Shown here in pieces: positions 8,485-62,366 of a stretch of 64,000 bases of DNA. The position numbers were made by a program, and so were the translations under genes. Below the pieces are notes generated by a model. It had not been told where the DNA came from. It saw only the letters and a program-made list of their open reading frames with translations, and searched no databases. The number at the start of each line of letters is the position of its first letter. Within the stretch, counting starts at the first letter, position 1. The stretch is from Patescibacteria group bacterium (GTDB lineage Bacteria > Patescibacteriota > Minisyncoccia > JACQLN01): NCBI GenBank assembly GCA_038065095.1, contig JBBTRR010000001.1, positions 29,652 to 93,651 on the forward strand, given 5' to 3'.

Positions 8485-9630
8485 GTGTCTAAAACTTTAA
8501 CTAACTTTATTTTGGCAGTTTCCACGCTGGTCGGCACCATAATTGGTGTCGGTATGTTTGGCTTGCCTTATGCGGCAAAAATTTCCGGTTTCGGACCAGT
8601 TATTTTTTACTTGGTATTACTTGGTATTTTAGTAACCTTACTTCATTTAATGTATGGCGAGGTTGTTCTTAGAACCTCAACTAAACATAGGTTGGCGGGT
8701 TATGCCGAAATTTATTTTGGTTCTAAGGGTAAAATAGTTGGTAGTGTTATTTTTTTTATAAATTTATATTTAGCACTTTTAGCTTATTTGGTTGTGGGTG
8801 GGGAATTTTTAAAAAATATTTTTTCTGGATTTTTAAATTTTTCTCCCCAAACCGGAACATTGCTTTTGGCATTAATTGGTTTTGCTGTAGTTTTTAAAGG
8901 GATTAAATTGGCCGGTGTTACCGATTTTTTTATGACAGCGATTTTAATTTTAATGGTTTTTGGAATAGGTTTTTTTGGTTATTCGACAATAGATTCAAAA
9001 AATTTAATTAACTTTGCTTCAAAGGATTCTTTATTTTTCCCTTATGGCATAGTTCTTTTTTCTTTAGCGGGTGGTTCGGCCATACCAGAGATAAGATCTT
9101 TTTTTAAAACTAATGTTAAAAATTATGCTAAGGCAATTATTTTAGGTACGGCTATACCTATTCTAATATATGCAGTTTTTACATTTATTATTTTTAGTAT
9201 AAGCGGAACTTTTACATCTAAAGAAGCTATTTCTGGTCTTGCAAATTTTCTTGGTAATGGTTTCGTAAGATATGGGGCTATTGTTGGCTTTCTTGCTGTA
9301 ATAACATCTTTTTTTACGATAGGTTTAAATTTAAAAAATTCTTTCCGGTTTGATTTTAAACTCCCTGTTTTTGTAAGTTTTGTATTAACGGTTGGCATAC
9401 CACTTTATTTGTTTTTTTCTGGATTCGCAGATTTTATAACCATAATATCTTTGGCCGGTGGAGTAATTGGTGGGTTAGAAGCTCTACTCATAATTTCCCT
9501 TTGGATAAAATCTAGAAAAAAAAGCGAAAGGATTCCCGAATATTCACTTAAATTAAGACCTGTAATTGTTGGTCTTTTGGTTTTGGTGTTTTCTTTGGCA
9601 ATTTTTTACGAACTTATTTATACTCTTTAA
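8485..9630 (+). CDS. amino-acid permease-like membrane transporter (aromatic/hydroxy amino acid permease-like)
   Basis: FILAVSTLVGTIIGVGMFGLPYA N-terminal signature, ~11 TM segments. The GTG start at 8485 is inferred. The ORF track extends to 8422, overlapping the previous ORF. Confidence 0.5.
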   Translation: MSKTLTNFILAVSTLVGTIIGVGMFGLPYAAKISGFGPVIFYLVLLGILVTLLHLMYGEVVLRTSTKHRLAGYAEIYFGSKGKIVGSVIFFINLYLALLAYLVVGGEFLKNIFSGFLNFSPQTGTLLLALIGFAVVFKGIKLAGVTDFFMTAILILMVFGIGFFGYSTIDSKNLINFASKDSLFFPYGIVLFSLAGGSAIPEIRSFFKTNVKNYAKAIILGTAIPILIYAVFTFIIFSISGTFTSKEAISGLANFLGNGFVRYGAIVGFLAVITSFFTIGLNLKNSFRFDFKLPVFVSFVLTVGIPLYLFFSGFADFITIISLAGGVIGGLEALLIISLWIKSRKKSERIPEYSLKLRPVIVGLLVLVFSLAIFYELIYTL

Positions 9631-13592: not shown

Positions 13593-15371
13593 ATGAATCA
13601 AGAAATTGCTAAAATTTTTAAAGAAATATCTATTCTACTTTCAATGCAAGGTGTGGCATTTAAACCGCAGGCGTTTGAGCGGGCGGCCACGAACATAGAA
13701 AACCTAGGCGAGGATTTAAAAGATATATATAAAAAAGGTGGTACTAAGGCTCTAGAACAAATTCAAGGTGTAGGTAAGAGCATGGCAGAAATGATAGAGG
13801 AGTATTTAAAAACAAAAAAAATTAAAGAACATTTAGCTTTAAAGAAAAAAATTCCGGTGGATATAGAGGGCTTAACTAGTGTGGAGGGCGTTGGCCCCAA
13901 GGGTGTATACAAACTTTATAAGAAGCTAGGCATTAGAACCTTAGGCGATTTAGAAAAATCGGCTAAGGCAGGCTTAATTAAAAATTTAGAAGGCTTTGGT
14001 GAAAAATCGGAGGAAAAAATTTTACGTGGTTTAGAGTTTGTTAAAAAGCACAGCGGTAGATATGTTTTAGGTTTTGTTTTACCCGAAATTAGGGAAATTG
14101 TTTTGCGTTTAGAAAAAAGTAAATATGCCGATAAAGTTTTGTTTTGTGGTTCGGCTCGAAGGATGCAGGAAACCATAGGTGACGCCGATATTTTAATAAC
14201 TTCTAAAAATGCAAAAGAAGTTATGGATCTTTTTATAAAAATGCCAGAAGTTGGAAGGGTGGTAGCAAAAGGCGAAACTAAAAGCGTTGTTAAGTTAAAT
14301 AATGGTTTAGAAGTAGACTTGCGTGTGGTAGCGCCCAAAAGTTTTGGGGCAGCGGCGCAATATTTTACTGGTGATAAAAATCATAATGTAGAATTGCGAA
14401 AGATTGCGATAGATAAAGGCTATAAGTTAAATGAGTATGGTTTGTATAAAATTAAAAAATCAAATCTCAAAAATCAAAATTACAATTCAAAAATAAAAAA
14501 TAAAGAAGAATATGTTGCTGGCGAATCAGAAGAGGGCATATATAAGGCGTTAGATATGGATTTTATTCCTCCAGAACTTAGAACCTTAAATGGCGAGATA
14601 GAAGCGGCTCAAAACCATAAACTTCCTAAGCTGGTTGATTACGGCGATTTAAAAGGCGATTTGCAGATTCAAACCAACTGGACGGATGGCGAAAACACAA
14701 TAGAAGAAATGGCTGAAGCCGCTATGAAAATAGGTTTGGAATATATTTTAATTACGGATCATACAAAATCCTTGGCTATGACAGGCGGGTCGGATGAGAA
14801 AAAGTTAGAAAAACAAATGGCAGAAATAGATAAAATAAACAAAAGATCCAAGTTCCAAGATACAGGTTTCAAGATTTTAAAAGGTGCTGAGGTAAATATT
14901 TTAAAAGATGGTTCGTTAGATATAGACGATAAAACTTTAGCTAAATTAGATGTGGTAGGTGTAGCGGTTCATTCTTTATTTAACCTGCCAAAAGCCGAAC
15001 AAACCAAAAGAATAATTAAGGCGATGGAAAACCCAAATGTAGATATTCTTTTTCATCCCACTGGCAGAATTATTAACAAACGACCAGCTTACGAAGTTGA
15101 TATGGAAGAAATTATAAAAGCCGCCAAAAGAACCGGCACGGTTTTAGAAATAGACGCTTTTGCCGATAGGTTAGATTTAAAAGATGAACACATAAGAATG
15201 GCGATAGAGGCAGGTATAAAATTATCCATAGATTCCGATGCGCATCATACGGATCATTTTAAATATTTAGAAATTGGTATTGCGCAGGCGAGAAGGGCTT
15301 GGGCGACAAGGGAAGATATAATAAACACACAACCCTTAGATAAAATGTTAGGATTTTTAAAAAATAATTAA
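13593..15371 (+). CDS. DNA polymerase X family (Pol beta-like domain + PHP domain)
   Basis: HhH motifs GVGKSMAEMIEEY and GVGPKG; the nucleotidyltransferase core; C-terminal PHP (ILITDHT, HS, DSDAHH). Confidence 0.85.
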   Translation: MNQEIAKIFKEISILLSMQGVAFKPQAFERAATNIENLGEDLKDIYKKGGTKALEQIQGVGKSMAEMIEEYLKTKKIKEHLALKKKIPVDIEGLTSVEGVGPKGVYKLYKKLGIRTLGDLEKSAKAGLIKNLEGFGEKSEEKILRGLEFVKKHSGRYVLGFVLPEIREIVLRLEKSKYADKVLFCGSARRMQETIGDADILITSKNAKEVMDLFIKMPEVGRVVAKGETKSVVKLNNGLEVDLRVVAPKSFGAAAQYFTGDKNHNVELRKIAIDKGYKLNEYGLYKIKKSNLKNQNYNSKIKNKEEYVAGESEEGIYKALDMDFIPPELRTLNGEIEAAQNHKLPKLVDYGDLKGDLQIQTNWTDGENTIEEMAEAAMKIGLEYILITDHTKSLAMTGGSDEKKLEKQMAEIDKINKRSKFQDTGFKILKGAEVNILKDGSLDIDDKTLAKLDVVGVAVHSLFNLPKAEQTKRIIKAMENPNVDILFHPTGRIINKRPAYEVDMEEIIKAAKRTGTVLEIDAFADRLDLKDEHIRMAIEAGIKLSIDSDAHHTDHFKYLEIGIAQARRAWATREDIINTQPLDKMLGFLKNN

Positions 15372-15376
15372 TTCAT

Positions 15377-15458
15377 AAATTTGTTCCCTCGTAGACGACA
15401 CGGAGGCCTCTCAATTGTAGAATCGGTCATCTCCGTGATGCTACTCGAGAACAAATTT
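15377..15458 (+). repeat. hairpin repeat HR, subtype 1, copy 2
   Basis: AAATTTGTTCCCTCGTAGACGACACGGAGGCCTCTCAATTGTAGAATCGGTCATCTCCGTGATGCTACTCGAGAACAAATTT. Same core as copy 1, with different but self-complementary flanks. Confidence 0.75.
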
Positions 15459-15467
15459 ATTTTGAGC

Positions 15468-15755
15468 ATGTTTAAAGATAAAGTTTATAAATTTACTAAA
15501 AAAATTCCCAAAGGCAAGGTGGCGACATATAAAAAAGTTGCTATGGCGATTGGTTCACCCAAAGCGGCGAGAGGAGTGGCGATGGTACTGTCTAAAAACT
15601 TTGACCCTAAAATCCCTTGCCATCGTGTTGTAAGAACCGATGGTTCTTTGGGTGGTTATAACCGTGGTGGTATTGTCGCAAAAGCAAAACTACTTAAAAG
15701 TGAAGGAGTCTTGATAGAAAATGGTAAAGTTGACTCAAAAACACATTTAATATAA
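15468..15755 (+). CDS. methylated-DNA-protein-cysteine methyltransferase (MGMT) DNA-binding domain protein
   Basis: PCHRVV active-site motif. The ORF-track start at 15381 merely translates the repeat; ATG 15468 is taken as the start. Confidence 0.75.
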   Translation: MFKDKVYKFTKKIPKGKVATYKKVAMAIGSPKAARGVAMVLSKNFDPKIPCHRVVRTDGSLGGYNRGGIVAKAKLLKSEGVLIENGKVDSKTHLI

Positions 15756-16068
15756 TATACAAATATATTATGAGTTTTATCAAAGCCACGCAATATAAAC
15801 ATATGTTAAAGACCAGAACAATTAACTGGTTTGTTTTGCGTTTCTGCAAAGCTAAAAATAAAGGGGGTTTTGATAAAATACAACAATTTACTACCTAGTT
15901 TAATAAGATAAATTCTATAGATAACTATCAAAACCTCCTTACGGAGGTTTTTAAGTTTTGGGGATTGGTTTGAGCATCTAAACTAGATGTTCAAACCAGA
16001 ATCCTAAAACGTTTAGGTTCTGGGAGTTCCTTAAAATCCAAATATCACACTATCCTAAGGAGGATAAT

Positions 16069-17841
16069 ATGATACGCATTAATAACACTTTCCAGACGCT
16101 TTTTAGTACGCCGAGGTTGTTTTTTACTTTAAAGGATAATCCGGTAAGTGAGCGAGTTATTAGCGAGCTTAAAGAGATGCTTGGTAGTGAACAAGAGTGT
16201 ATTGTTTTTGGAGATGTTAGCGAAGTAAGAGCTATGTTTGAAAGCGGAATTTCGCCAGATTCAGCAGTGGTTTTGATTGATGTTGGTATGTCTGGGGAAT
16301 TTAGCCCCACAACTCAATTACGCCCATGTGAATCTGCAACCATTCCTAGTTGGTCGTGTGGTGCCCAATGGTGTGTAAAGGTAAGTGGTAAATGCCGTCG
16401 CCCTGATCGTTGCGCTCGGCAGTTGCGGGCAGATTTTGTTCGAAATTTTCAAGATCATCTCGGTATCGGCTACTATCCATGGGGCAAACCCCGCCTCAAC
16501 GAAAAACCTCCAGTGAGTGTTAATTTGGGCGATATGACGAATGTTATCGGCAGATTAAACAGTGGCCCAGATTTTGCCGAAGCCATAGCCGATCAAGGGC
16601 ACGTTTTAGAATTGCCCAAGGGTTCCAAGATAAGTTGGATAAGAATTCCACCTGAACCTTTGGTTTGCGATGAAGCTAGTTTGAAGGGGATTATGACCGC
16701 TTTCGACGAGTTCGAAGCATCAAGCTGTAAATTAACTTTGTTGGATAGCAGTGTTTCCGAAATGCTTTTTTCCGGTGTGGATCTTAATGGTTCTCTTAAG
16801 GATATCTATCTTTTTCCTGACAAAAAAATGTTCTCAGTGCGACGTCCCGATTTGCACTTTACAGGTGAAGGGGTGTTTGCGTCGGAGAACGACGAGATGC
16901 CGGGTGGTTTTGCGGAGCTAGTTCATCTGGATCAAGCCTACAAGGTTAATCAAGACAGGTGGCATAGGTGTTTTGAGTGGTTGTCTGGCATGGGTCCAGT
17001 TCTATTTTTGGTTTCGCATGAATGGAGCAAGTGTTATATACCAGAAATAAAGTGGCTGGTAGAAAATTTGCAAAAGCTTGGTTACCCAGCTTTGTTTCTT
17101 TCTACCGAAAACTTGGATCGTCTCATCATCAATTCGCACGGAGTATATTTTGATGGCGAAAAGATGGGTACTGTCTGGCGGCAATTTCCAATTTTCGAAA
17201 CGAAAGAGGATTCCAAATTAGGGGATTTGGTTCACGCGGCTAAAAACGGCGTGATCCGTTTGGTGCCGGAGTTTGCTCATTTCGGAAACAAGGCTTGGTT
17301 TTCTATTTTTAGAAGTCGAGCAGATTTTTTCCGCTGTGAACTTTCTCCAAAATCTTTTTATATTCTAGATGCCATCTTGCCAGATTCTCGTTTGGTTAAT
17401 CCTCAAAGCACTAGCAATCCTTTTCCTTGTTCTGTAGCTGGGTTGAATATTGTTGATATCCATCACTTTATGGGGCTAGAGGAAGATGAAAGGAATCGCT
17501 TAGTGCTTAAGGTTTGTGGAGCCAATACGTTGTCGGCTAGGTCTTATGGCGTACTGATTGGTCATGGCCTTATTGGTAGTACTTGGTCTGGCTGGATCAA
17601 AGAGCGGCTACAGTTAAACCAACCTTTTATTGTTCAACGCCGTTTGGAAAGTGGTGTGGTGCGCATACCCGTTATGAACACTCGTCGAAATTGCGGTGAG
17701 ATGTTTAACTGCCGAGTTCTTTTGCGCCCGTGGATGATAGGTGGGGAATTGGTTTCTGTTTCGGCTTGCGCTGTGCCATCGAATACTTTCAGGGTTCACG
17801 GTATGGTAGACATGGCCGTGGCGCCAGTGATATTTGGATAG
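16069..17841 (+). CDS. ATP-grasp family ligase with long Cys-rich N-terminal extension (GshB/RimK-like C-terminal half)
   Basis: LVLKVCGANTLSARSYGVLIG resembles IVLKPLDGMGGASIFRV; FIVQRRLESG resembles MAQNYLPAIKDGDKR. Markedly higher GC than flanking genes. AAGGAGGATAAT-ATG RBS. Confidence 0.55.
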   Translation: MIRINNTFQTLFSTPRLFFTLKDNPVSERVISELKEMLGSEQECIVFGDVSEVRAMFESGISPDSAVVLIDVGMSGEFSPTTQLRPCESATIPSWSCGAQWCVKVSGKCRRPDRCARQLRADFVRNFQDHLGIGYYPWGKPRLNEKPPVSVNLGDMTNVIGRLNSGPDFAEAIADQGHVLELPKGSKISWIRIPPEPLVCDEASLKGIMTAFDEFEASSCKLTLLDSSVSEMLFSGVDLNGSLKDIYLFPDKKMFSVRRPDLHFTGEGVFASENDEMPGGFAELVHLDQAYKVNQDRWHRCFEWLSGMGPVLFLVSHEWSKCYIPEIKWLVENLQKLGYPALFLSTENLDRLIINSHGVYFDGEKMGTVWRQFPIFETKEDSKLGDLVHAAKNGVIRLVPEFAHFGNKAWFSIFRSRADFFRCELSPKSFYILDAILPDSRLVNPQSTSNPFPCSVAGLNIVDIHHFMGLEEDERNRLVLKVCGANTLSARSYGVLIGHGLIGSTWSGWIKERLQLNQPFIVQRRLESGVVRIPVMNTRRNCGEMFNCRVLLRPWMIGGELVSVSACAVPSNTFRVHGMVDMAVAPVIFG

Positions 17842-17853
17842 TTTTAGGTAAAA

Positions 17854-18981
17854 GTGCGCAAGCTCGAGGTAAAAATAAACTTCGAGCTTGCGCCAATTTT
17901 AATAATGAAAAATAAAAAAAATTTATCAATAAAAAGGTTTAGGGATTATGGCTTTAAAGTCGGTCTTTTGCCGTGTGGTAAAAAAAATTCCATAGCCGAT
18001 GTTCTTGGTGTAAAAGTAGGGCACTTAAATAAAATATTGGGTAAAGATATTAGAACTGGTATAACCATAATTGATCCGGGAATAAAAAATTTATTTAGAA
18101 AAAAAATTCCAGCCGCAGTTTATGTGGGTAATGGTTTTGGAAAATTAACAGGTACCACTCAAATTGAAGAATTAGGCACTTTGGAAACTCCTATCGCGCT
18201 TACCAATACTCTGGCGGTAGGGCCAGTCATGCGAGGCGTAGTAGATTGGGTTATTAAAAATTCGCCCGATATTAAATCAACAGAAACTGTAAATGCTGTA
18301 GTTGGTGAAACTAACGACGGCTGGTTAAATAATATTCATAAAAATTCAATCAGCTCAGTTGATGTTTTTAAAACCTTTAAAAATTTATCGGCCGATTTTG
18401 CCACAGGTTGTGTGGGTGCGGGCGTAGGCACACGTTTATTTTCTTGGAAGGGTGGTATTGGTTCGTCTTCGCGTTTAATTAAAATTGGAAACAAAAAATA
18501 TACACTAGGTGCTTTGGTTCAAACAAATTTTGGTGGCGCGTTAAATATATTAGGAATACCCGTTGGTAAAATTTTAGGCCAAACTGATTTTGATAGTTTT
18601 ATTAAAATAGGTGATGGATCTTGTATGATTGTTTTAGCAACAGACGCTCCGCTTTCGGCTCGCCAGTTAAAAAGAATTGCTAAAAGGGCAATGCTTGGTT
18701 TGGCTAAAACAGGTTCGGTTATGGCACATGGTAGTGGAGATTACGCTATAGCCTTTAGCACTAACAGAAGCGGTATAGAAGGCGAGGGAAGTTTGTCTAA
18801 ATGCTTGTCTGATTCATGTTTAACACAATTCTTTTTAGGAGCAGTTGAAGCCACAGAAGAAAGTATTTACGATGCTTTGTTTGCCGCAAAAACCACAATA
18901 GGTGTAAATGGCCATATTTTGAAATCTATTCCCAAAGAACAGGTGGTTGAAATAATAAAAAACAAAAATGGCGAAAAATAA
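17854..18981 (+). CDS. DmpA/peptidase S58 family aminopeptidase
   Basis: GKKNSIADVLGVKVGH, TGITIID, GSGDYAIAFS. The true start may be ATG ~17905 (MKNKKNL). Confidence 0.6.
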   Translation: MRKLEVKINFELAPILIMKNKKNLSIKRFRDYGFKVGLLPCGKKNSIADVLGVKVGHLNKILGKDIRTGITIIDPGIKNLFRKKIPAAVYVGNGFGKLTGTTQIEELGTLETPIALTNTLAVGPVMRGVVDWVIKNSPDIKSTETVNAVVGETNDGWLNNIHKNSISSVDVFKTFKNLSADFATGCVGAGVGTRLFSWKGGIGSSSRLIKIGNKKYTLGALVQTNFGGALNILGIPVGKILGQTDFDSFIKIGDGSCMIVLATDAPLSARQLKRIAKRAMLGLAKTGSVMAHGSGDYAIAFSTNRSGIEGEGSLSKCLSDSCLTQFFLGAVEATEESIYDALFAAKTTIGVNGHILKSIPKEQVVEIIKNKNGEK

Positions 18982-19669
18982 AAAACAATTTCGTTTGGGC
19001 ATTTTAGGTGGCATGGGGCCGATGGCTGGCGTTTGGTTTCAAAAAATAATAATAGATTCAACGTCAGCCACAAAAGATCAAGACCATATTCAAGTGGTTT
19101 GTTTTACCAATCCTAAAATTCCAGATAGAACGAATTCTTTGCTTAAAGATGGTGGTAAAGATTATGTAAAAGAGGTTTCTAAATCGCTTAAGGTTTTAGC
19201 TGAAGCCGGTGCAAATTTTCTTGCTATTCCTTGCAATACTGCACATGCTAGGCTTAAACAAATTCAAGCTAATATCTCGGTTCCTATACTAGATATGATT
19301 GATCTTACCGTAAATGAGGTGGTAGATAATTTCTGTAACGTAATTATTCTAGCTACGGACGCTACTATAAAAGAAAAGGTTTATCAGTTAAAAAATAAAT
19401 CTAATAATATTAATTGGATATATCCAGACAAAAAAACTCAAAAGAAAGTTTCGAAAATAATTTACAGTATAAAAGCTGGCCGAGAAAAAAATATTTTAGA
19501 AAATATTGTTAGTATGGTAAAAAAGCTTAATAAGAATTCTAACGCTGTTATTTTTGCTTGTACCGAACTTTCTATTTACGCCAAGGAGGCCAGAAAATTT
19601 ATTAAAATTCCAATAATTGACCCCTTAGAAGTGTTGGCGAAGGAAGTGGTTAGACTTGGAACCAAATAA
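18968..19669 (+). CDS. Asp/Glu racemase family protein (aspartate racemase-like)
   Basis: LGILGGMGPMAG and PCNTAH motifs. Confidence 0.7.
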   Translation: MAKNKKQFRLGILGGMGPMAGVWFQKIIIDSTSATKDQDHIQVVCFTNPKIPDRTNSLLKDGGKDYVKEVSKSLKVLAEAGANFLAIPCNTAHARLKQIQANISVPILDMIDLTVNEVVDNFCNVIILATDATIKEKVYQLKNKSNNINWIYPDKKTQKKVSKIIYSIKAGREKNILENIVSMVKKLNKNSNAVIFACTELSIYAKEARKFIKIPIIDPLEVLAKEVVRLGTK

Positions 19670-19670
19670 A

Positions 19671-19706
19671 ATATCCCTCCGACGAAAGGTCGGAGGGATA
19701 TTTTTT
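19671..19706. terminator. bidirectional intrinsic terminator
   Basis: ATATCCCTCCGAC-GAAAG-GTCGGAGGGATAT plus T6, between convergent genes. Confidence 0.65.
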
Positions 19707-21058: not shown

Positions 21059-21199
21059 AATTATGTCCCTCGACTTGTGGTGAAGAGGGTCGAACCACTT
21101 CGCTCGGGACACTCGACTCGTAGTGCATACCTACCAAGTTATTTGATTTGGTTGTGGCTTGCCACGAGTGAGTCCGAGCTTAAGTGAGGACGAGTCGAG

Positions 21200-21558
21200 T
21201 GGAGATGGCGGGAATTGAACCCGCGTGCAAAAAGTTTCTCGATTAAATTGCTACGAAGCCTAACCGTTCTTAATTTAAGTTTAACTCTTAAAGAACGGTG
21301 AAAAAAGTTAAACTTTTGGCGATTGTCTTAAGTCTAAAGTTCGCCTTCATTAGACAGCAGCCCGAAAGGTTGGCACCGCACACTGTCTTCTCGGGCGAAA
21401 ACAGGGCGATGGCTGATAGATTTTAAGCTACAGCGAACGCTGGTTTATTAGCGCTAAATAAGTTTGCACTTACTATTTGTAACCAGTTTTATGAGTTTGT
21501 GGTATACCTCAGCTTCGAATTCTTATCGATACGTTCCTTGACGATTCAAGTCATCCCC
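21200..21558 (-). ncRNA. ssrA: tmRNA (ssrA)
   Basis: 5' GGGGATGAC...TGAATCGTC. 3' tRNA-like GCGGGTTCAATTCCCGCCATCTCCA with acceptor pairing GGGGATG/CATCTCC. Internal tag frame GCA-AAC-... gives ANLFSANKPAFAVA-TAA (plus coordinates ~21424-21468). Immediately downstream of smpB. Confidence 0.75.
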
Positions 21559-22174: not shown

Positions 22175-22657
22175 TTGGCTATGCTTATAAGAAAGAATGA
22201 ATACTTGGATTTACCTAGAAGTAAAGTAAGGTGTCTTAGTAATATCAGTCTGCCGAAAAGCACTAGTCTTTCGGTGTATCCTAAGTGGTTCATGAACAAG
22301 AATCATTTGGAGTTAAGTATTGTTCTTTTCAGAACAGATAAGAATGGTAATCTTAAGGAGCGGGAAGTTAGTCTTTTGGAGCTGTTTCCTTTGGAAAGTA
22401 TTCCCAGTGGCGGTCCTAATTTTTTGAGTTTTATTAAATCGGGAAGTCACCTCTGGGGTGCTATAGATATGAGTTTGCAGCAGCTTGTAACTAAAATCAC
22501 GCACGAGTTACAAATTTTCTTTGATTCCGAAGTTGCAACTCTTGGAGGTATAAATCCAAATGAAGTTGTGAAATTTTCCTTAGAAATTGGTCACGAAGTT
22601 TTAGAAGGTGAGAGTACTGTAAGGAGACTCAAGGGTTTTCTTCTCTTTAGGGAATAA
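22175..22657 (+). CDS. hypothetical protein
   Basis: 160-aa ORF. Upstream TTGACA ... TATAAT promoter-like elements around 22101-22130. A terminator follows. Confidence 0.35.
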   Translation: MAMLIRKNEYLDLPRSKVRCLSNISLPKSTSLSVYPKWFMNKNHLELSIVLFRTDKNGNLKEREVSLLELFPLESIPSGGPNFLSFIKSGSHLWGAIDMSLQQLVTKITHELQIFFDSEVATLGGINPNEVVKFSLEIGHEVLEGESTVRRLKGFLLFRE

Positions 22658-22752: not shown

Positions 22753-25700
22753 ATGAGACAAGTAAATCTACCTCAAGAAGAAGAAAAAGTTTTAAAACAT
22801 TGGCACGAAAACGAGATTTTCGAAAAAACTCTAGAAGCCACTAAAGATGGTAAGCCTTTTGTATTTTACGAGGGCCCGCCTACGGCCAATGGCAAACCAG
22901 GTATTCATCATATTGTGGCGAGGTCTTTTAAAGATATTATTTGCCGTTTTCAAACCATGAAAGGCCGGTACGTTTCGCGCCGCGCCGGTTGGGATACACA
23001 TGGCTTGCCGGTAGAAATTGAGGTAGAGAAAAAACTTGGTTTAAAAAATAAGCGCGATGTAGAAAAATACGGTATCGCCAAGTTTAATAAAGATTGCCAA
23101 ATATCGGTATGGCAATATAAAGATGAATGGGAAAAAATGACACGCCGAATGGGCTATTGGCTCGATTTAAAAAATCCATATATAACTTACGAACCTCAAT
23201 ACATAGAAAATGTTTGGAATATTTTAAAAAGAATTTACGATAAAAATCTTTTAGTTAAAGATTATAAAATCGTGCCGTTTTGTGTGCGTTGTGGTACGCC
23301 AATTTCTAGCCACGAAGTGGCGCAGGGTTACGAAACAGTTACAGATAGATCGGTAACCATAAAATTTAAAGTAAAAGGTTTAGAAAATACATATTTACTG
23401 GCGTGGACTACCACGCCGTGGACTTTACCAGGAAACGTTGCTTTGGCAGTTGGGCCAAAGGTTGTTTATGTAGAAGCCGAAGTTAACGGCGAAAAATATA
23501 TTTTGGCTCGCGATTTAGCCGAGAAAGTTTTTTCCTCGACTACGCTCGGAACAAGTGGCTCTGATTACAAAATAAATAAAGAATTAAAAGCGGGCGATCT
23601 TACCAAACTTTCTTACGAACCATTATTTGCAGTTAAAGAATTAGAAAGTGAAAATTCTTACAAAGTTTACGAAGCTGATTTTGTAACCACCGAAGATGGT
23701 ACGGGGATTGTGCATACCGCTGTAATGTATGGCGCCGACGATTTTGAACTTGGCACCAAATTAAATTTGCCAAAATTCCACACGGTTAACCGCGAAGGCG
23801 TTTTTGTAAAATCAGTCCCTGTTGTTGGTGGCCTTGCTATTGTTAGCGAAAATAAAAAAGACCCAATAACCGAAAAAACAATTTTGTTTTATTTAAAAAA
23901 ACAAAATTTTCTGTTTAGCGAAGCTAGCTACAAACACGAATATCCATTCTGTTGGCGTTGTAAATCGCCGTTACTATATTACGCCCAAGAAAGTTGGTTT
24001 ATAAAAATGTCGGCGTTACGGGGCGATTTAATTAAAAATAACGAAAAAGTTAATTGGGTGCCCGAACACATTAAAGAAGGTAGGTTTGGCGAATGGTTAC
24101 GCGAAGTTAAAGATTGGGCCATAAGCCGTGAAAGGTATTGGGGCACGCCACTGCCAATTTGGGAGTGCACCAAATGCGAACATAAAACCGTGATTGGTTC
24201 TTTGGAAGAATTAAATTCAAACAGATTTAGCGAAGGCACGGATTTTTTACTGGTTCGTCATGGTGAAGCTGAATCTAATGTGGGTCAATTTGTTAGCTGC
24301 TATCCAGAAAAAAAATTAAACCCACTTACCGAAAAAGGTAGAAAGCAAGTGGAAGAATCAGCTAAAAAAATAAAAAAAGAATTAGGTAAAAATAAAGTTG
24401 CAGCTATTTATGCTTCCGATGTTTTACGCGCTCGTGAGACCGCACAGATAATCGCGGATGAACTTAAAATAAAAGAAGTTGTCTTAGATGAAAGACTACG
24501 CGAAATAAACGTAGGCGATTTAAACGGCTTGCTTTCAAGTGAATACGTGGCCCATTTTAATTCGCTTAAAGATCGCTTTGTACGCCCAGCACCAGGCGGA
24601 GAATCGCTTGAGGATACAGTTAAAAGAATGAAGAATTTTGTGCATGATGTTTCTGAAAAATATGGAAACAAGAAGGTGATTGTGGTTAGTCACGGCGATC
24701 CCCTATTTTTCTTAAAAAATTCAGATAAAGTTTATGGCGAAGACGAACTTGAACTTCTATATCAAAAAGCTATAGATAAACCAGGAAAATATTTAGACCT
24801 GGCGGGGTTTACAGATTTTAAACTTAATAACTGGCCTTACGACGAAGAAGGGAATTTAAACCTTCATCGCCCTTATGCAGATAATGTGTTCCTCAAGTGT
24901 TCTATGTGTTCCTCAAAAATGGAACGTATAAAAGACTTAGCCGATGTTTGGTTTGATTCAGGTGCGATGCCATGGGCGTCATCGGAAAATCAAAAATCAA
25001 AAATCAAAAATCAAAATTTAGGGAAAGATAAGTTTCCAGCTGATTACATTTGTGAAGCGATAGATCAAACTCGTGGTTGGTTTTACACCTTAATGGCGGT
25101 TAGCACAGCTTTGGGCGAAGGCACGCCATATAAAAATGTAATTAGTTTAAACCACGTGTTAGATGAAAAAGGCGAGAAGATGTCGAAATCGAAAGGGAAT
25201 ATTGTAGACCCATGGATGGTGGGCGAGAAAGTTGGTTTCGACATGATGCGTTGGTATTTTTATACTGTAAACGCGCCGGGTGATAACAAACTTTTTAGTA
25301 TGCGCGATATAGAAAGCAAAAAGCGCAGGTTTGCCGATACTCTAATTAATTCATTCTTGTTTCTCGAAACATACTATGTTTCGAGTGGTGAGCGTAGTCG
25401 AACCATTACAGCTCGACCGGACATTCTAGATAAATGGATTTTAATGCGTTTAGAAAAATTAGAATTTGAAGTAAATAAATTTTTAGAAACTTACGATATA
25501 ACTTCCGCTTCGCGTGCTATAGAAGAATTTATAGATGAACTTTCTAATTGGTATATTCGCCGCAGTCGCCGCAAATTTCAAAAACAAAATATAGACGCCG
25601 AAAAATTATCGGCTCAAAATACTTTAACCGAAGTTTTAAAACGCACTGCTATTATTATGGCGCCATTTGCACCGTTTATATCGGAATGGCTATATATGAA

Positions 25701-26307
25701 TCTCAAAAACTTGAAACTTGGAACTTGTAACTTAGAATCAGTCCATCTCGAACACTGGCCGAAGTCATCCAAAATATCTAAATCGGAAATTACCAAAGCT
25801 ATGGAAAGAGCTCGTGAAATTGTGGCTCTAGGTTTAGCCGAGCGTGCTCAAGCGGGTTTACGCGTGCGCCAACCATTAAATGCTTTGTATGTTTCGCCAG
25901 CCGATTACAATTTAATTGGCGATGTTTTATACATTGTGGCGGAGGAACTAAATGTTAAAAAAGTTTTAAGCGACAGAAAAATAGAAAAAAATAGCGTTAG
26001 TTTGGATACTGTTCTTACAGCGGAACTCAAAGAAGAAGGTATGGTGCGTGAAATGATTCGCAACATTAACGAAATGAGAAAAGAAGCGAAGCTAACACCG
26101 GAAGATAAAATAATTTTGTATTACGAATTAAATCAAAACGCTAATTTTAAAGAATTATTAACGCGTTGGGAAAATATAATTAAACAAGAAACTCGTTCTA
26201 CCCAAATTCACTTCGGTATAACCGAAGCCGAAAGTTTTTTGGTCCACAAAGTTTGGAATTACGAAGGTTTTGAAATTGGAGTGGGGATTAAGACACACGA
26301 AGATTAA
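22753..26307 (+). CDS. ileS: isoleucyl-tRNA synthetase with inserted histidine-phosphatase (PGAM-family) domain
   Basis: PPTANGKPGIHHIVA (HIGH), CP1 editing region, WAISRERYWGTPLP, DQTRGWFYTL, KMSKSKGN. 1184 aa. Confidence 0.9.
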   Translation: MRQVNLPQEEEKVLKHWHENEIFEKTLEATKDGKPFVFYEGPPTANGKPGIHHIVARSFKDIICRFQTMKGRYVSRRAGWDTHGLPVEIEVEKKLGLKNKRDVEKYGIAKFNKDCQISVWQYKDEWEKMTRRMGYWLDLKNPYITYEPQYIENVWNILKRIYDKNLLVKDYKIVPFCVRCGTPISSHEVAQGYETVTDRSVTIKFKVKGLENTYLLAWTTTPWTLPGNVALAVGPKVVYVEAEVNGEKYILARDLAEKVFSSTTLGTSGSDYKINKELKAGDLTKLSYEPLFAVKELESENSYKVYEADFVTTEDGTGIVHTAVMYGADDFELGTKLNLPKFHTVNREGVFVKSVPVVGGLAIVSENKKDPITEKTILFYLKKQNFLFSEASYKHEYPFCWRCKSPLLYYAQESWFIKMSALRGDLIKNNEKVNWVPEHIKEGRFGEWLREVKDWAISRERYWGTPLPIWECTKCEHKTVIGSLEELNSNRFSEGTDFLLVRHGEAESNVGQFVSCYPEKKLNPLTEKGRKQVEESAKKIKKELGKNKVAAIYASDVLRARETAQIIADELKIKEVVLDERLREINVGDLNGLLSSEYVAHFNSLKDRFVRPAPGGESLEDTVKRMKNFVHDVSEKYGNKKVIVVSHGDPLFFLKNSDKVYGEDELELLYQKAIDKPGKYLDLAGFTDFKLNNWPYDEEGNLNLHRPYADNVFLKCSMCSSKMERIKDLADVWFDSGAMPWASSENQKSKIKNQNLGKDKFPADYICEAIDQTRGWFYTLMAVSTALGEGTPYKNVISLNHVLDEKGEKMSKSKGNIVDPWMVGEKVGFDMMRWYFYTVNAPGDNKLFSMRDIESKKRRFADTLINSFLFLETYYVSSGERSRTITARPDILDKWILMRLEKLEFEVNKFLETYDITSASRAIEEFIDELSNWYIRRSRRKFQKQNIDAEKLSAQNTLTEVLKRTAIIMAPFAPFISEWLYMNLKNLKLGTCNLESVHLEHWPKSSKISKSEITKAMERAREIVALGLAERAQAGLRVRQPLNALYVSPADYNLIGDVLYIVAEELNVKKVLSDRKIEKNSVSLDTVLTAELKEEGMVREMIRNINEMRKEAKLTPEDKIILYYELNQNANFKELLTRWENIIKQETRSTQIHFGITEAESFLVHKVWNYEGFEIGVGIKTHED
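24235..24730 (+). other. PGAM/histidine-phosphatase domain inserted within ileS
   Basis: LLVRHGEAESN (RHG), LTEKGRKQ, ASDVLRARETA, PGGESLEDTVKR, VVSHGDP. The domain sits between CTKCEH and KCSMCSS zinc-knuckle halves. Confidence 0.7.
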
Positions 26308-36194: not shown

Positions 36195-36380
36195 ATGGTG
36201 GCTTACGAAGTAGGAATCGGGATTCTAATATCCGCGTTGTTGGCACTGATTTGTTTACTGGCGTCCAACAAGTGGGGAAAAGAATCGACGAAGTGGTTTC
36301 ATGTCGGGACCATCATCGCTATCGTTGTAGTTTTGATAGTGAAAGCAATTAAAGATCGTAAATGGAGGTTCTTCTCATGA
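36195..36380 (+). CDS. small hypothetical membrane protein
   Basis: 61-aa ORF with two TM segments and AAGGAGGACACA-ATG RBS. GC-richer than the genome average. Confidence 0.3.
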   Translation: MVAYEVGIGILISALLALICLLASNKWGKESTKWFHVGTIIAIVVVLIVKAIKDRKWRFFS

Positions 36381-37327
36381 ATCCTGTCGTTCGTCGCGTT
36401 CTCACCATAGTTACAATCGTCCTTGCGGGGTTTTTAATCCTGCAATTGGCAAGCGTACTGATGGCCATGTCGATTTATTCATGGTTTTTCCAAACCATTA
36501 GGAATGCATCAGGCATGCCTGATGCATTAAATGGGGCAATTAGTATTTGGCTCGTCGCCATCGTTCTGATGCTGCTCCCCACTTTCTTTTCTGCAATCTT
36601 CTTCAGGAAGACTCTAAAGAAGGTGCTCATCGTTGCAGGAGCACTGTCTGGTTGGGTTTTGATTGTATACTTCATGTCTTTGCCAAAGGAGGGACAGTTT
36701 TTCAACCCTATGACTGGGCAGACGATGTATCGTTATGCACGGTCTCCTGACGGCAAGATTGATCTCTTTCCTCTAGGTTACAAATTTCATCCGAGGTATG
36801 GAACAGAGTTGGAACTAGTAACACCAGAGATTATAAAAGAGATTGATCGAAAGGCTACAGAGGCTGTCATGAACCAAGAGAAGGAACAAGAACGACAAAG
36901 ATTGATGAACCTCAATTTGCAAAATGCGCAGAGAGAGAAAGAGCTGGCTCAGCAGAGAGCTGAAGCCAGTGAGCGAAGAGAGAAAGAGGCTCGGGCTAAA
37001 CTTCAGTTCTCTCAGAGAGAGAAAGAGCTGGCTCAGCAGAGAGCTGAAGCCAAAGAAAGCGAACAACAAAATCAGGAACTGGATCGACTCAGGGCTCAAA
37101 TCAAAGAAGGCCAAGAAAAAGTACTTCGACAGATGCGAGAGGATTCTGTTCGAGTAGCAAAGTACCTGGCTGAAAAAGAAGCTCAAGCATTAAAATCAAA
37201 AGAGAAGCCCAAGAAAGATATATGTAATGGTGGTCAGTCTCTTGGTCCAGGCATGTATGCTGGTAAAACATGTTGGGATTCCGACGGAGGAATGTATATT
37301 ACAGGAGGAAGTGTGACTCCTAGATGA
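36362..37327 (+). CDS. membrane-anchored coiled-coil protein with exact 40-nt in-frame direct repeat
   Basis: 3 TM segments, then a Q/E/K/R-rich coiled coil. QREKELAQQRAEA is encoded twice (36929-36968 and 37013-37052). GC-richer than the flanks. Confidence 0.4.
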   Translation: MEVLLMNPVVRRVLTIVTIVLAGFLILQLASVLMAMSIYSWFFQTIRNASGMPDALNGAISIWLVAIVLMLLPTFFSAIFFRKTLKKVLIVAGALSGWVLIVYFMSLPKEGQFFNPMTGQTMYRYARSPDGKIDLFPLGYKFHPRYGTELELVTPEIIKEIDRKATEAVMNQEKEQERQRLMNLNLQNAQREKELAQQRAEASERREKEARAKLQFSQREKELAQQRAEAKESEQQNQELDRLRAQIKEGQEKVLRQMREDSVRVAKYLAEKEAQALKSKEKPKKDICNGGQSLGPGMYAGKTCWDSDGGMYITGGSVTPR

Positions 37328-54155: not shown

Positions 54156-55106
54156 ATGGAAGACGAAATACCAAAAAAAAATAACTCATATGCTTTGCCA
54201 ATAACCATTATTATCGCGGGAGCTATGATTGCGGTGGCTTTGGTCTATGGTCCTAGAAACTGGGCGACGTCAACACAAAACATTGCTGGGCAAGTCTCGG
54301 TGGTTGAAGAAGCTGTCTTGCCTTCAAAAGGCGTTGTGCTTCCAGTTACTTGGAGTGATCTCGGATTAAAGCTTGTTAGTGTAGGAGCTATTGATGCTGA
54401 AAAATTTAAAGCTGTCTATGATCAAAAAAGGGTTTTTACCGATGAATATAAAAACCTTCTTCTTGGTAAGAGCGATGGCAAACTCAAAATAACAAATGAA
54501 AATTCCGGTTATTTGCTTAATCTGTTTTGGGCGCTTGGTCTAGCCAGCAAAAATCCAATATTGGAATCAGGCGAGATGACAAATCCGGCCTATGGGGGCG
54601 CGGGAAATTTTGCTTCAACAGGCGGTTGGACAATTGCGCAAGGCAACGCTATGGATCATTACAGTCGCCATAAATTTTTTGATTTAACTTCCGAACAGCA
54701 AGCTCTTGTAGATAAAATATCAAAAGGCATATACAGACCGTGTTGTGGCAATTCCACGCATTTTCCGGACTGTAATCATGGAATGGCTATGCTCGGTCTT
54801 CTTGAGCTTATGGCTTCGCAGGGTACAAGTGAACAGGATATGTGGCGAGCAGCTTTAGCTGTTAATTCCTATTGGTTTCCAGACACATATATAACAATTG
54901 CGGCCTATATGAAAGGCAAAGGCGTTGAATGGAAAGATGTAAATCCGCAAGAAATACTGGGCGCTAACTATTCAAGCGCGCAGGGATATGCAGAGATTGC
55001 CGCTCAAGTTTCTCAACCTCATCAGCAAGGAGGTGGAAGTGGTTGCGGAGTTGGCGCTGGAGAACCAGCTGCACCACAACGTCAGCAGGGCGGATGTGGA
55101 ATATAA
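54156..55106 (+). CDS. hypothetical secreted/anchored Cys-rich protein
   Basis: N-terminal TM, CCGNSTHFPDCNHG motif, Gly/Gln-rich C-terminal tail ending CG. Confidence 0.3.
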   Translation: MEDEIPKKNNSYALPITIIIAGAMIAVALVYGPRNWATSTQNIAGQVSVVEEAVLPSKGVVLPVTWSDLGLKLVSVGAIDAEKFKAVYDQKRVFTDEYKNLLLGKSDGKLKITNENSGYLLNLFWALGLASKNPILESGEMTNPAYGGAGNFASTGGWTIAQGNAMDHYSRHKFFDLTSEQQALVDKISKGIYRPCCGNSTHFPDCNHGMAMLGLLELMASQGTSEQDMWRAALAVNSYWFPDTYITIAAYMKGKGVEWKDVNPQEILGANYSSAQGYAEIAAQVSQPHQQGGGSGCGVGAGEPAAPQRQQGGCGI

Positions 55107-61532: not shown

Positions 61533-62366
61533 ATGGCTAAAAGCCCGGTCGGTAGTATGTCGGACTGGTCCGGCGTGCTCAAAGATTTTTTCCGTCAGGT
61601 TGACGATGGCAGTATCACGCTGGAGATGGTGAAGGCCTTCGTCGAACATCGGGTTGTGTCTGCTCTCGAAACTCTGCTGGAGACCACAAAAAAGAAACTC
61701 CAGAAGTTTTTCCGTGTAGACCTTGAACCCATGCCTGCTGAATTCACCGAAGAGAACTTGGCCAAGTGGGCCGAGTTCAACTTGAAGCCTGTCTATCTGC
61801 CGATGGAAGAAATCGGTGAAGACCGCAAACTGAAAAATTGGACCAAGCCCGAAAAATGGTTTTATCAGAAAATCGGAGAAGGCAAAGTTAACGCGGACAG
61901 TGCCAAGCTTCACCAAGGCTGGTATCTGGCCGATTTCACAGTCGGCACAGATTACACCGACGGCACGCAGGTGTTTCCGAACGACCCTCTCAATCCAATC
62001 ATCAAAAGATTGCGCGAAGAAGGGAAAATCGGAAAGTACGATAATACTCCGCTCGGTTCTCGCTTTGCCATTACCCACGACGAATGGCAGACAGTAGTTT
62101 GTCCTGCTGTGGCCGAATCACTTGGTTTCAAACCTACACAGGTTCGCTTGGAGCGATCCATTGAATTTAACGCGATCGGGAATATCTACGATCCCAATCG
62201 TGGCAGGTTCAATATGTGGGAGTGGTTCAGTGATAAATTTGAGGACTCCTACCAGCTTTGCAGTGGTCGCCGCGGGAGCGGTGGTCTGGCCCACGTCTTC
62301 TACAGTTGGTCTAGTCATCGCCTCGTCGACATAGCTGGTCGTCCTCTGGTGAGTTTCGTGAGTTAG
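61533..62366 (+). CDS. DGR target (variable) protein, C-terminal VR
   Basis: GC-rich ORF with GCAGGAGAAACTGGCT-ATG RBS. Its C-terminal ~40 codons align to the downstream TR, with differences concentrated at TR adenines. Confidence 0.65.
   Translation: MAKSPVGSMSDWSGVLKDFFRQVDDGSITLEMVKAFVEHRVVSALETLLETTKKKLQKFFRVDLEPMPAEFTEENLAKWAEFNLKPVYLPMEEIGEDRKLKNWTKPEKWFYQKIGEGKVNADSAKLHQGWYLADFTVGTDYTDGTQVFPNDPLNPIIKRLREEGKIGKYDNTPLGSRFAITHDEWQTVVCPAVAESLGFKPTQVRLERSIEFNAIGNIYDPNRGRFNMWEWFSDKFEDSYQLCSGRRGSGGLAHVFYSWSSHRLVDIAGRPLVSFVS
62235..62352 (+). other. DGR variable region (VR)
   Basis: Aligns to TR 62661-62778 with a constant offset of 426 nt. The 3' homology block CGTCCTCTGGT(G)AGTTTC is identical (IMH-like). 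Confidence 0.6.

Follow-up and report, generated by a model that had tools for sequence, protein, structure and literature searches.

A Patescibacteria operon joining a glutathione synthetase-like ligase to an S58 aminopeptidase and a two-cysteine racemase, preceded by an apparent transcription attenuator

We describe a three-gene locus and its upstream leader in a 64,000-nucleotide (nt) stretch of DNA from a Patescibacteria group bacterium (assembly GCA_038065095.1, contig JBBTRR010000001.1, positions 29,652 to 93,651 of the forward strand). The whole stretch is referred to below as the window, and positions are numbered from its first letter. The genes encode a ligase annotated everywhere as hypothetical, an S58-family peptidase and an amino-acid racemase, and the leader in front of them appears to be a conserved transcription attenuator. 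The window has a GC content of ~35–37% and the gene content of a Patescibacteria (candidate phyla radiation, CPR) genome, with recognizable transfer-messenger RNA (tmRNA, 21197–21558), smpB, infC-rpmI-rplT, PolX and ileS. The three genes are as follows.

16069–17841, + strand: ligase gene, open reading frame (ORF) of 590 amino acids (aa)
17905–18981, + strand: S58 peptidase gene, 358 aa, Pfam PF03576 (from GTG 17854 in the ORF list)
18968–19669, + strand: racemase gene, 233 aa, PF01177, TIGR00035 and NF052483; overlaps the S58 stop codon by 14 nt

A preliminary description of this region had placed the ligase gene at 16069–17841 with the other two genes downstream in the same orientation, and had drawn attention to a non-coding region upstream of the ligase gene. 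Both statements hold: the gap measures 313 nt and contains a 42-codon ATG ORF (15770–15898).

Related loci were obtained by exact protein look-up (7) and from genome and metagenome collections (53), leaving 46 distinct loci after removal of duplicates. Among the 37 loci whose sequence extends far enough downstream, the S58 gene directly followed the ligase gene in 36, locus L017 being the exception. The racemase gene followed S58 in ~32 of these 37 loci; it was absent from L010, L021, L035 and L043 and lay upstream in L052. The order ligase, S58, racemase is thus kept in other genomes. The two nearest neighbors on each side (124 ORFs) represented 145 different Pfam families, none recurring beyond closely related lineages, and no mur gene, transporter, immunity gene or leader peptidase was conserved among them. 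Because synteny is nearly universal while the neighbors differ among loci, the cassette is self-contained. Comparison across loci indicates that the region is a single vertically inherited operon, specific to Patescibacteria (Paceibacteria-type lineages). We are highly confident of the cassette and leader architecture as described here.

A gap of 275–590 nt preceded the ligase gene at every locus. The window leader folded with a minimum free energy of -92.4 kcal/mol, versus -55.4 ± 4.8 kcal/mol for shuffled sequences (z = -7.7). Almost no conserved columns were present in a MAFFT alignment of eight leaders; layout and base pairing were conserved instead. No Rfam model reached its gathering score in the window leader, where relaxing to E ≤ 10 brought up only spurious hairpin matches, and the leaders of 11 other loci gave no match. 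The main leader elements are listed below.

15730–15758, + strand: σ70-type promoter, TTGACT (15730–15735), 17-nt spacer, TAATAT (15753–15758), from a promoter scan
15770–15898, + strand: small ORF (sORF) of 42 codons (MSFIKATQYKHMLKTRTINWFVLRFCKAKNKGGFDKIQQFTT) starting with ATG; no Shine-Dalgarno sequence, nearly leaderless
15774–15787, + strand: strand A, the 5' strand of the closing helix, inside the sORF start, from RNAfold
15862–15879, + strand: strand B (AGGGGGUUUUGAUAAAAU), the 3' strand of the closing helix and candidate antiterminator, from pairing tests
15930–15957, + strand: intrinsic terminator AAAACCUCC-UUAC-GGAGGUUUU with U-rich tail, from a terminator scan
16057–16063, + strand: Shine-Dalgarno sequence AAGGAGG of the ligase gene, read from the sequence

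Transcription in the window is predicted to start at ~15765, 4–5 nt before the sORF AUG. When 37 loci were anchored on the sORF ATG, TTGACA was visible in most, followed by a 16–18 nt spacer and a TAnnnT box, and in 25 of 35 loci the -35 and -10 boxes together matched at 8 or more of 12 positions. The -10 box ended a median of 11 nt (interquartile range 9–12) before the ATG, and the AUG lay 7–13 nt after the -10 box. Given this spacing and the lack of a Shine-Dalgarno sequence, the transcript should begin 0–6 nt before the AUG.

The sORF itself is a recurrent feature. ATG ORFs of 30–62 codons (median 40) occurred in the -340 to -80 interval of 36–38 of the 46 loci, compared to 11.2 ± 3.1 in shuffled sequences and 11 on the reverse strand. 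The 42-codon ORF singled out in the window therefore recurs beside the ligase gene elsewhere. The other two frames of the sORF contained 5.4 stops per 100 codons; the sORF frame was open for ~40 codons in ~26 independent lineages. The encoded peptides have a basic character, contain little Asp, Glu or Pro (1.8% Asp, 1.5% Glu), and share a motif, [FY]-x-W-[MLF]-[HQY], as in K-V-A-[LY]-F-A-W-[ML]-H. The codons of this motif vary synonymously (Ala GCC/GCG/GCU, Phe UUU/UUC, His CAC/CAU, Leu CUG/CUC). Two loci depart from the usual arrangement: L026 has a second sORF copy (MQTFGKSYTQWMTCKTNLRLAVVFIKHLIQTSRS) at ~-490 from the ligase start, upstream of the regular one (MKNFSLTTCYWMTRKTTVRLAVLFIKHVMRTNPGVNLST), and in L025 the ORF with the Trp motif and the terminator lie ~300 nt further upstream than usual.

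Two competing pairings were found to overlap the sORF. RNAfold predicted a closing helix of 14 base pairs (bp) in the window (15774–15787/15866–15879), and the equivalent A:B helix in most lineages despite unrelated sequences. The cognate A:B duplex ranked first in 13 of 27 loci and among the top three in 20 (chance, 1 and 3). The window terminator has a 9-bp stem (15930–15951) followed by a U-tract. Of 38 loci, 31 had an equivalent terminator, separated from the sORF stop by 12–50 nt (median 27); loci with a divergently oriented upstream gene (L003, L007 and L008) were no exception. Strand B is complementary to the terminator 5' arm AAAACCUCC. At 29 of 31 loci the best partner of this arm was at sORF nt 88–105, that is, strand B (mean z = -2.9). 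Strand B also changes together with the differing terminators of L031, L044, L028, L051, L053 and L034; the antiterminator of L031 pairs CAAACCAGCUCCUG with GGGAGCUGGUCUG, and that of L044 pairs AGACCGCCGCGGA with GCCGCGGCG.

The distance from terminator to ligase start codon is 36–146 nt, with a further hairpin (hairpin 2, below) beginning at the U-tract. As this interval is filled by hairpin 2, no independent promoter fits and the operon must be expressed by read-through. The promoter, sORF, A:B helix, terminator and B:C pairing (C being the terminator 5' arm), together with the lack of a second promoter, define an attenuator of the 1:2 / 2:3 / 3:4 type: an intrinsic terminator follows a short ORF in the leader, and a mutually exclusive antiterminator overlaps that ORF. 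The leader hence appears to be a conserved transcription attenuator with an antiterminator alternative, and not merely structured RNA.

Additional hairpins were identified downstream of the terminator and between the first two genes.

15955–16010, + strand: hairpin 2, inner stem 15965–15980/15984–15999, outer stem 15955–15963/16002–16010, from RNAalifold and a covariance model
15998–16026, + strand: alternative hairpin AGAAUCCUAAA-ACG-UUUAGGUUCU with CUGG box, read from the sequences
17856–17893, + strand: intercistronic hairpin, 15 bp, A/U-rich tail, directly before the S58 start, from a hairpin scan

The inner stem of hairpin 2 has 16 bp. The hairpin corresponds to the family consensus UUCGGGRAUUGAUG…CAUCAGCACCUGAA and starts right at the terminator U-tract in ~18–20 lineages. 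RNAalifold on alignment A3 (17 loci) gave 16 pairs, 12 of them with compensatory changes. Covariance model R1, built for this hairpin, matched only ligase leaders in 477 kb, with 19 loci at E < 1e-4 (6.7e-12 for the window). The alternative hairpin (15998–16021) overlaps the 3' strand of hairpin 2, and at other loci a GCUGGA box is, by eye, the reverse complement of CCAGC in that strand. All three leader hairpins reported in the preliminary description (15930–15951, 15965–15999 and 15998–16021) are thereby accounted for. A long, near-perfect hairpin separated ligase and S58 genes at every locus (z < -2 in 40 of 42, mean z -5.8). Like the leader, these additional hairpins have no counterpart in Rfam. 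The S58 start, a few nt after this hairpin, has no Shine-Dalgarno sequence in the window (17894–17905) or at the other loci inspected; the ligase gene has AAGGAGG.

A word-indexed search returned 158 homologues of the ligase, all ~590–650 aa and all annotated as hypothetical. Every homologue with a lineage name came from Patescibacteria (Uhr-, Sung-, Lipton-, Pace- and Staskawicz-bacteria). Only 26 ligase loci turned up among 185,579 species (one genome per species scanned). In an exhaustive comparison of the ligase profile to 1.84 billion cluster representatives, 340 proteins scored E ≤ 1e-3, 47 of them reaching E ≤ 1e-30. Alignment of 38 members (A1) showed a mean column identity of 41% and ~70 invariant positions clustered in motifs: S272-ENDEMPGG, W370-RQFPIFE, P400-EF..GNK.W, K481..GAN..R491-SYGV, Q523, E544, R553-PW and H577-G. 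Putative Mg/ATP ligands E273, D275, E276, K408, K481, R491 and E544 are invariant in this alignment.

No Pfam or NCBIfam model matched the ligase, and ATP-grasp models (Pfam ATP-grasp, GSH_synth_ATP, GSP_synth and CP_ATPgrasp) matched none of the 38 family members even at E ≤ 10. Searches of PDB sequences by phmmer, and by hmmsearch with the family profile, found nothing. An AlphaFold2 model was obtained with a predicted local distance difference test score (pLDDT) of 92.9 and a predicted template-modeling score (pTM) of 0.85. Foldseek comparison of this model to the PDB placed eukaryotic-type glutathione synthetases first (E down to 1e-12, target template-modeling score (TM) ~0.55), with further matches to Cp1B (a ligase of the E-64 pathway), E. 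coli YjfC/YgiC and GspS. Cp1B couples a dicarboxylic acid to an amino acid (PMC12568646). All 39 PDB matches at E ≤ 1e-3 were ATP-grasp enzymes of the glutathione synthetase/GspS type except the last, the classical enzyme PsnB; classical ATP-grasp enzymes (Ddl, PsnB and synapsin) matched only near E = 1e-3. The modeled ligase has the characteristic fold of the ATP-grasp superfamily. Sequence homology to the glutathione synthetase/GspS family was not detected, the fold alone being similar (9–14% identity, TM 0.44–0.60). As no sequence profile recognizes the ligase, its assignment to ATP-grasp enzymes, proposed in the preliminary description, rests on structure prediction and Foldseek; it is borne out by the fold and finds no counterpart in sequence profiles (0/38 members). 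Judged from the model, the ligase is expected to work like a circularly permuted ATP-grasp carboxylate-amine ligase, and by sequence it is a member of no described family.

The ligase is divided into an N-terminal α/β domain (residues ~1–155) and a glutathione synthetase-like fold (~160–590). Stand-alone homologues of ~450 aa (residues ~160–590) and ~170 aa (~10–155) set this boundary. The ATP-grasp region is accordingly larger than the C-terminal half to which it had been ascribed, and the separate domain correspondingly shorter. Nor is a Cys-rich N-terminus a feature of the family: no cysteine is invariant, the best, C115, being present in 32 of 38 members. Modeled alone, the N-domain gave an α/β fold with pLDDT 87.5. 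Its top Foldseek match was peptidyl-tRNA hydrolase (Pth), at E 6e-3 and TM 0.38–0.46; hhalign against E. coli Pth returned a probability of 0.2% and a PDB profile search found no Pth, and this candidate was rejected.

Both parts of the ligase also occur outside the cassette. At L063 (2730–3507; also L064), a 168-aa protein corresponding to the N-domain alone is encoded after rplJ-rplL, with no ligase body, S58 or racemase gene nearby. Its leader is of the same type: the promoter recurs, an sORF of 23 codons follows, and both an antiterminator-like GGCGGAGGTT and a terminator are present. Approximately 25 cluster representatives are N-domain-only proteins. A 446-aa protein at L062 (2388–3728), distantly related to the ligase body, shares its motif set and likewise has no Pfam match. 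It adjoins ruvA, has no S58 or racemase gene beside it and gives no functional clue for the cassette, yet its occurrence outside the cassette indicates that a wider unannotated ligase family exists.

The partner enzymes were readily classified, in agreement with the S58/DmpA-type and aspartate-racemase-like genes named in the preliminary description. S58 matched Pfam Peptidase_S58 (PF03576) at E 1.9e-106 over profile positions 1–305 of 307, essentially full-length. Its nearest solved structures were 2DRH, a P. horikoshii 'D-aminopeptidase' (6.5e-81), BapA 3N2W (2.3e-49) and DmpA 1B65 (1.7e-45). By profile and structure matches it is an N-terminal-nucleophile aminopeptidase of the DmpA/BapA group, whose enzymes expose their nucleophile by cleaving themselves between Gly or Asn and Ser and are specific for D-/β-aminoacyl substrates. 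The segment GDG-S-CMIVLATDAPL presumably marks the position of the DmpA self-cleavage site between Gly and Ser. The start codon is most likely ATG 17905, preferred because GTG 17854 sits in the conserved intercistronic hairpin, and domain and structure alignments begin near 17905.

The racemase matched Pfam Asp_Glu_race (PF01177; E 1.6e-36), TIGR00035 (166 bits, cut-off 93) and NF052483 CuyB (208 bits, cut-off 190), with identical best matches for all 17 family members tested. C89 (in PCNTAH) and C198 (in CTE) were invariant in these 17, and the nearest solved structure was the Asp racemase 1JFL (1.9e-38). These matches identify it as a two-cysteine amino-acid racemase of aspartate/cysteate type. 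The CuyB model represents cysteate racemase (PMC11193023). PADLOC matched no cassette protein to a known anti-phage defense model. The operon is followed by one further element.

19668–19704, strand not assigned: operon-end hairpin, 16 bp, A- and U-runs on both sides, from a terminator scan and the sequence

This hairpin, with the racemase gene on one side and the convergent rplT on the other, is probably a bidirectional terminator closing the operon. At L009 a S-adenosylmethionine (SAM) riboswitch (8731–8828; RF00162, 47.9 bits) is located just 3' of the racemase gene.

In the mechanism that we favor for the leader, transcription from the σ70-type promoter would start a few nt before AUG 15770. 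The first ~130 nt would encode the ~40-codon ORF and fold so that either A pairs with B or B pairs with terminator arm C. In the absence of a ribosome, A:B and the terminator stem C:D would both form and transcription would end. A ribosome at the sORF stop would cover B, again leading to termination. A ribosome lingering within the mini-ORF would instead hold A from B, allowing B to capture C and giving read-through into the ligase gene. The switch would thus be a ribosome-dependent attenuator of the trp/his type acting on a nearly leaderless ORF. Hairpin 2 and the ligase-S58 hairpin would probably fine-tune translation or the ratio of the proteins to one another.

The conserved Trp-centered motif suggests that a Trp codon or the nascent peptide is the sensor. 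A classical starvation attenuator with single-codon runs was considered and rejected, since no amino acid is repeated in the sORFs. We incline, by a small degree, to ribosome dependence of the switch. A more speculative extension, to which we attach low confidence, is that the nascent ~40-residue peptide is itself the sensor, its basic/aromatic Trp motif stalling the ribosome on a small molecule. Such a stall would flip the antiterminator and turn on a D-acidic conjugate pathway; candidate signals would be a D-amino acid, a D-aminoacyl-tRNA or the ligase product.

The most economical pathway for the three enzymes would be cytoplasmic. The racemase would supply a D-acidic amino acid, either D-Asp or a closely similar compound; the ligase would form an amide between it and an acceptor amine or peptide; and S58 would remove or recycle the residue so added. 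D-Amino-acid amide ligation and trimming by the cassette is a reasonable hypothesis in view of the enzyme classes. The specific chemistry of a D-acidic amino acid being made, ligated and then removed or recycled is put forward tentatively. The favored explanation as a whole, comprising operon, attenuator and enzymes, is one that we hold with moderate confidence.

Several observations weigh against this interpretation. Approximately 8 of the 46 loci have no clear sORF or terminator, some with short contigs or longer ORFs. Trp is absent from 6 of 35 non-redundant sORF peptides. Substitutions in the sORF fall 143/163/201 by codon position, a weak third-position bias which implies that selection on the peptide is weak outside the Trp motif and that RNA-level constraints overlap. 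The sORF peptides contain no amino-acid runs, hence there is no evident classical starvation codon. Cognate versus non-cognate comparison of B:C placed the cognate pairing among the top three in 14 of 27 loci with a mean z of -1.6, significant but modest, and many terminators share CCUCC/GGAGG, inflating the apparent B:C complementarity. Transcription start, sORF translation and regulated termination are all things we infer. On the enzyme side, L017 has neither S58 nor racemase downstream of the ligase, four further loci have no adjacent racemase gene, and the racemase scores best against the cysteate racemase model.

The strongest alternative for the leader is a riboswitch-like or protein-binding RNA. 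Here the bound state would have A:B (possibly with hairpin 2) formed, leaving the terminator free; in the unbound state B:C would form and give read-through, the ORF being secondary or modulatory. The long closing helix around two or three small hairpins resembles the architecture of an aptamer, and A:B is cognate-specific across lineages with unrelated sequences. Aptamers of riboswitches retain invariant core nucleotides across phyla, whereas the interior of this leader is barely alignable and finds no match in Rfam. Hairpin 2, with its conserved internal loop, covarying stems and variable tip, is also suggestive of a binding RNA, and the SAM riboswitch at L009 illustrates that Patescibacteria use riboswitches. 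The weak codon-position signal in the sORF would be in keeping with such an element; the synonymous variation of the Trp motif would not, and a ~40-codon frame with its AUG 7–13 nt after the -10 box in ~26 lineages is unexpected for an RNA-only element. Overall we consider this alternative a serious one, though less probable than the ribosome-dependent switch.

A different role for the enzymes is salvage or detoxification. S58 would strip N-terminal D- or β-residues from peptides imported from the host or of cell-wall origin, the racemase would make usable L-forms of D-Asp/D-Glu-like products, and the ligase would re-use or sequester the product. Slowed translation, from amino-acid scarcity or accumulating D-aminoacyl-tRNAs, would be the trigger. 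Patescibacteria depend on imported amino acids, and regulation by amino-acid supply would suit an attenuator that is activated by stalled ribosomes. Of the three genes, S58 is the best conserved (55–65% identity), and the racemase is missing from some loci. It is hard, however, to see why a purely catabolic route would need an ATP-consuming ligase, and no peptide transporter is linked to the cassette. We give salvage, in each of these steps and in its trigger, a rather low probability, though it is as difficult to dismiss as the biosynthetic route.

The sORF could alternatively encode a functional small protein or a peptide substrate, such as a precursor or scaffold resembling those of ribosomally synthesized and post-translationally modified peptides (RiPPs), which the ligase extends and S58 trims, the hairpin setting mRNA ratios as in lantibiotic operons. 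The conserved position of the sORF directly upstream of ligase and peptidase genes, followed by a leaky terminator, agrees with this, as does partial conservation of the peptide, and ligases of the GspS and YgiC/YjfC types act on peptide carboxylates. Yet the peptide has neither a conserved terminus nor a conserved core, the genes around the cassette include no recurrent transporter, immunity gene or leader peptidase, and the B/C covariation points to regulated and not merely leaky termination. The preliminary description had offered a graspetide-type cassette as one reading. A graspetide substrate is excluded by the depletion of Asp and Glu (3.3% together) and by the lack of a Ser/Thr-rich core or one combining Ser/Thr with Asp/Glu, and PsnB-type ligases are marginal structural matches (E ~1e-3; PsnB 8e-4, TM 0.20/0.35). 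A peptide-substrate role is accordingly unlikely.

The remaining alternative concerned the origin of the ligase gene. Its GC content (0.444) exceeds the mean of the window genes (0.366, standard deviation 0.036; z ~2.2) and that of its neighbors (0.35–0.37), and its codon usage differs locally (Lys AAG 0.52 versus 0.16, Ile ATC 0.27 versus 0.04). The preliminary description had noted this excess, which is real but modest, and had taken the gene to be richer than anything around it; it ranks third of 46 window ORFs, after 61533–62366 (0.505) and 36362–37327 (0.449). These two ORFs, along with 54156–55106 (0.439) and 1219–1695 (0.405), have no Pfam match. The ligase GC content was above that of its own flanks in 28 of 34 lineages, by a mean of 5.5 points, at host GC contents of 0.35–0.65 and uniformly along the gene. 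GC at third codon positions (GC3) was likewise higher in the ligase gene than in the S58 gene of the same operon for 28 of 34 lineages, for example 0.91 versus 0.58 in L028 and 0.41 versus 0.25 in the window. In the nearest relative, L001, the ligase is 81% identical, in line with PolX (84%), MGMT (81%), S58 (86%), racemase (76%) and IleRS (86%), and across the family pairwise ligase identities track those of the operon partners (r = 0.66 and 0.75). Comparison among lineages thus indicates that the GC excess is a trait of the ligase gene family and not a sign of recent transfer. That the ligase is a recently acquired foreign gene inserted beside resident genes, as the preliminary description had proposed from its local GC excess and distinct codon usage, is highly improbable given an offset common to 28 of 34 lineages whatever the host GC, a gene order conserved throughout the ligase family, divergence from L001 equal to that of the flanks, and identities that correlate with those of the partners. 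Of the preliminary description, the locus and the enzyme classes stand, whereas the horizontal transfer and graspetide readings fail.

Two observations were made on neighboring genes. The isoleucyl-tRNA synthetase of the window (22753–26307, 1184 aa) has a histidine-phosphatase domain (PF00300) inserted at residues 499–651, and likewise in L001. Upstream of ileS, L001 has a diversity-generating retroelement (15276–16696; bAvd and reverse transcriptase); the corresponding site in the window (22175–22657) holds a 160-aa ORF with no Pfam match.

Patescibacteria, which are tiny and host-dependent, represent a large part of bacterial diversity, and their gene regulation and important 'hypothetical' proteins are barely known. 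The locus provides a phylum-restricted regulatory leader that is directly testable. What is new here is an undescribed ligase family of glutathione synthetase type, a fixed three-enzyme cassette and an undescribed attenuator carrying an sORF. The ligase family escapes current domain databases, and its fixed partners, a D-/β-aminopeptidase and an Asp-type racemase, point to D-amino-acid chemistry. In organisms of minimal metabolism, it might serve the cell envelope, salvage or detoxification. For genome scans, the locus also cautions that a GC-rich gene can reflect a lineage-wide family trait, not horizontal transfer. Should the nascent-peptide reading prove true, the locus would represent a new regulatory class, together with a phylum-specific D-acidic conjugate pathway run by unrecognized glutathione synthetase-like ligases, the ligase gene having its own GC3-rich codon usage.

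Comparison with known systems places the ligase structurally closest to eukaryotic glutathione synthetase (2HGS, 1M0W and 3KAL), GspS (2IO7/3O98), YjfC/YgiC (7UK6/7UK8) and Cp1B (9CJN), with Foldseek E from 1e-12 to 1e-6, probability 1.00 and target TM up to 0.60. All of these are ATP-dependent carboxylate-to-amine ligases. The order of motifs, with an acidic SENDEMPGG loop before the Lys/Arg strands, suggests the same circular permutation. The ligase differs from this group in being only 9–14% identical, undetected by the sequence models of those families, equipped with an extra N-domain of ~155 aa and restricted to Patescibacteria. To our knowledge, S58 and racemase gene partners are not known for glutathione synthetase, GspS, YjfC/YgiC or Cp1B.

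The closest functional parallel is the D-aspartate ligase Aslfm with the aspartate racemase Racfm, which reportedly (Bellais and colleagues, 2006) serve the peptidoglycan cross-bridge of Enterococcus faecium. There too an ATP-grasp ligase gene adjoins an aspartate-type racemase gene and both enzymes are cytoplasmic. Aslfm is a classical, non-permuted ATP-grasp enzyme and so would be an analogue, not a homologue, of the cassette ligase. The pair offers a functional analogy only, for the attachment of a D-acidic residue to an amine. Unlike the cassette, the enterococcal pair has no known S58 partner, and no link to mur genes was seen among the 124 cassette neighbors. The cassette S58 resembles DmpA, BapA and P. 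horikoshii PH0078: it matches the Pfam family over its whole length and solved members strongly, PH0078 being closest. We know of no S58 family member that shares an operon with a ligase and a racemase or lies downstream of an attenuator.

Like the trp, his and pheA leaders, the leader described here has a short ORF before an intrinsic terminator and three mutually exclusive pairings, A:B, B:C and C:D. In mycobacteria, attenuators with leaderless poly-Cys sORFs are translated from the transcript 5' end without a Shine-Dalgarno sequence (bioRxiv 10.1101/834739). Unlike in the trp, his, pheA and mycobacterial attenuators, the ORF is long (~40 codons) and spans A to B, with its stop at or after B. 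The leader further differs from them in that the regulated genes are not those of amino-acid biosynthesis and an extra covarying hairpin follows the terminator. In place of a regulatory codon run, the ORF carries a conserved Trp-centered motif that recalls the arrest peptides TnaC and SecM.

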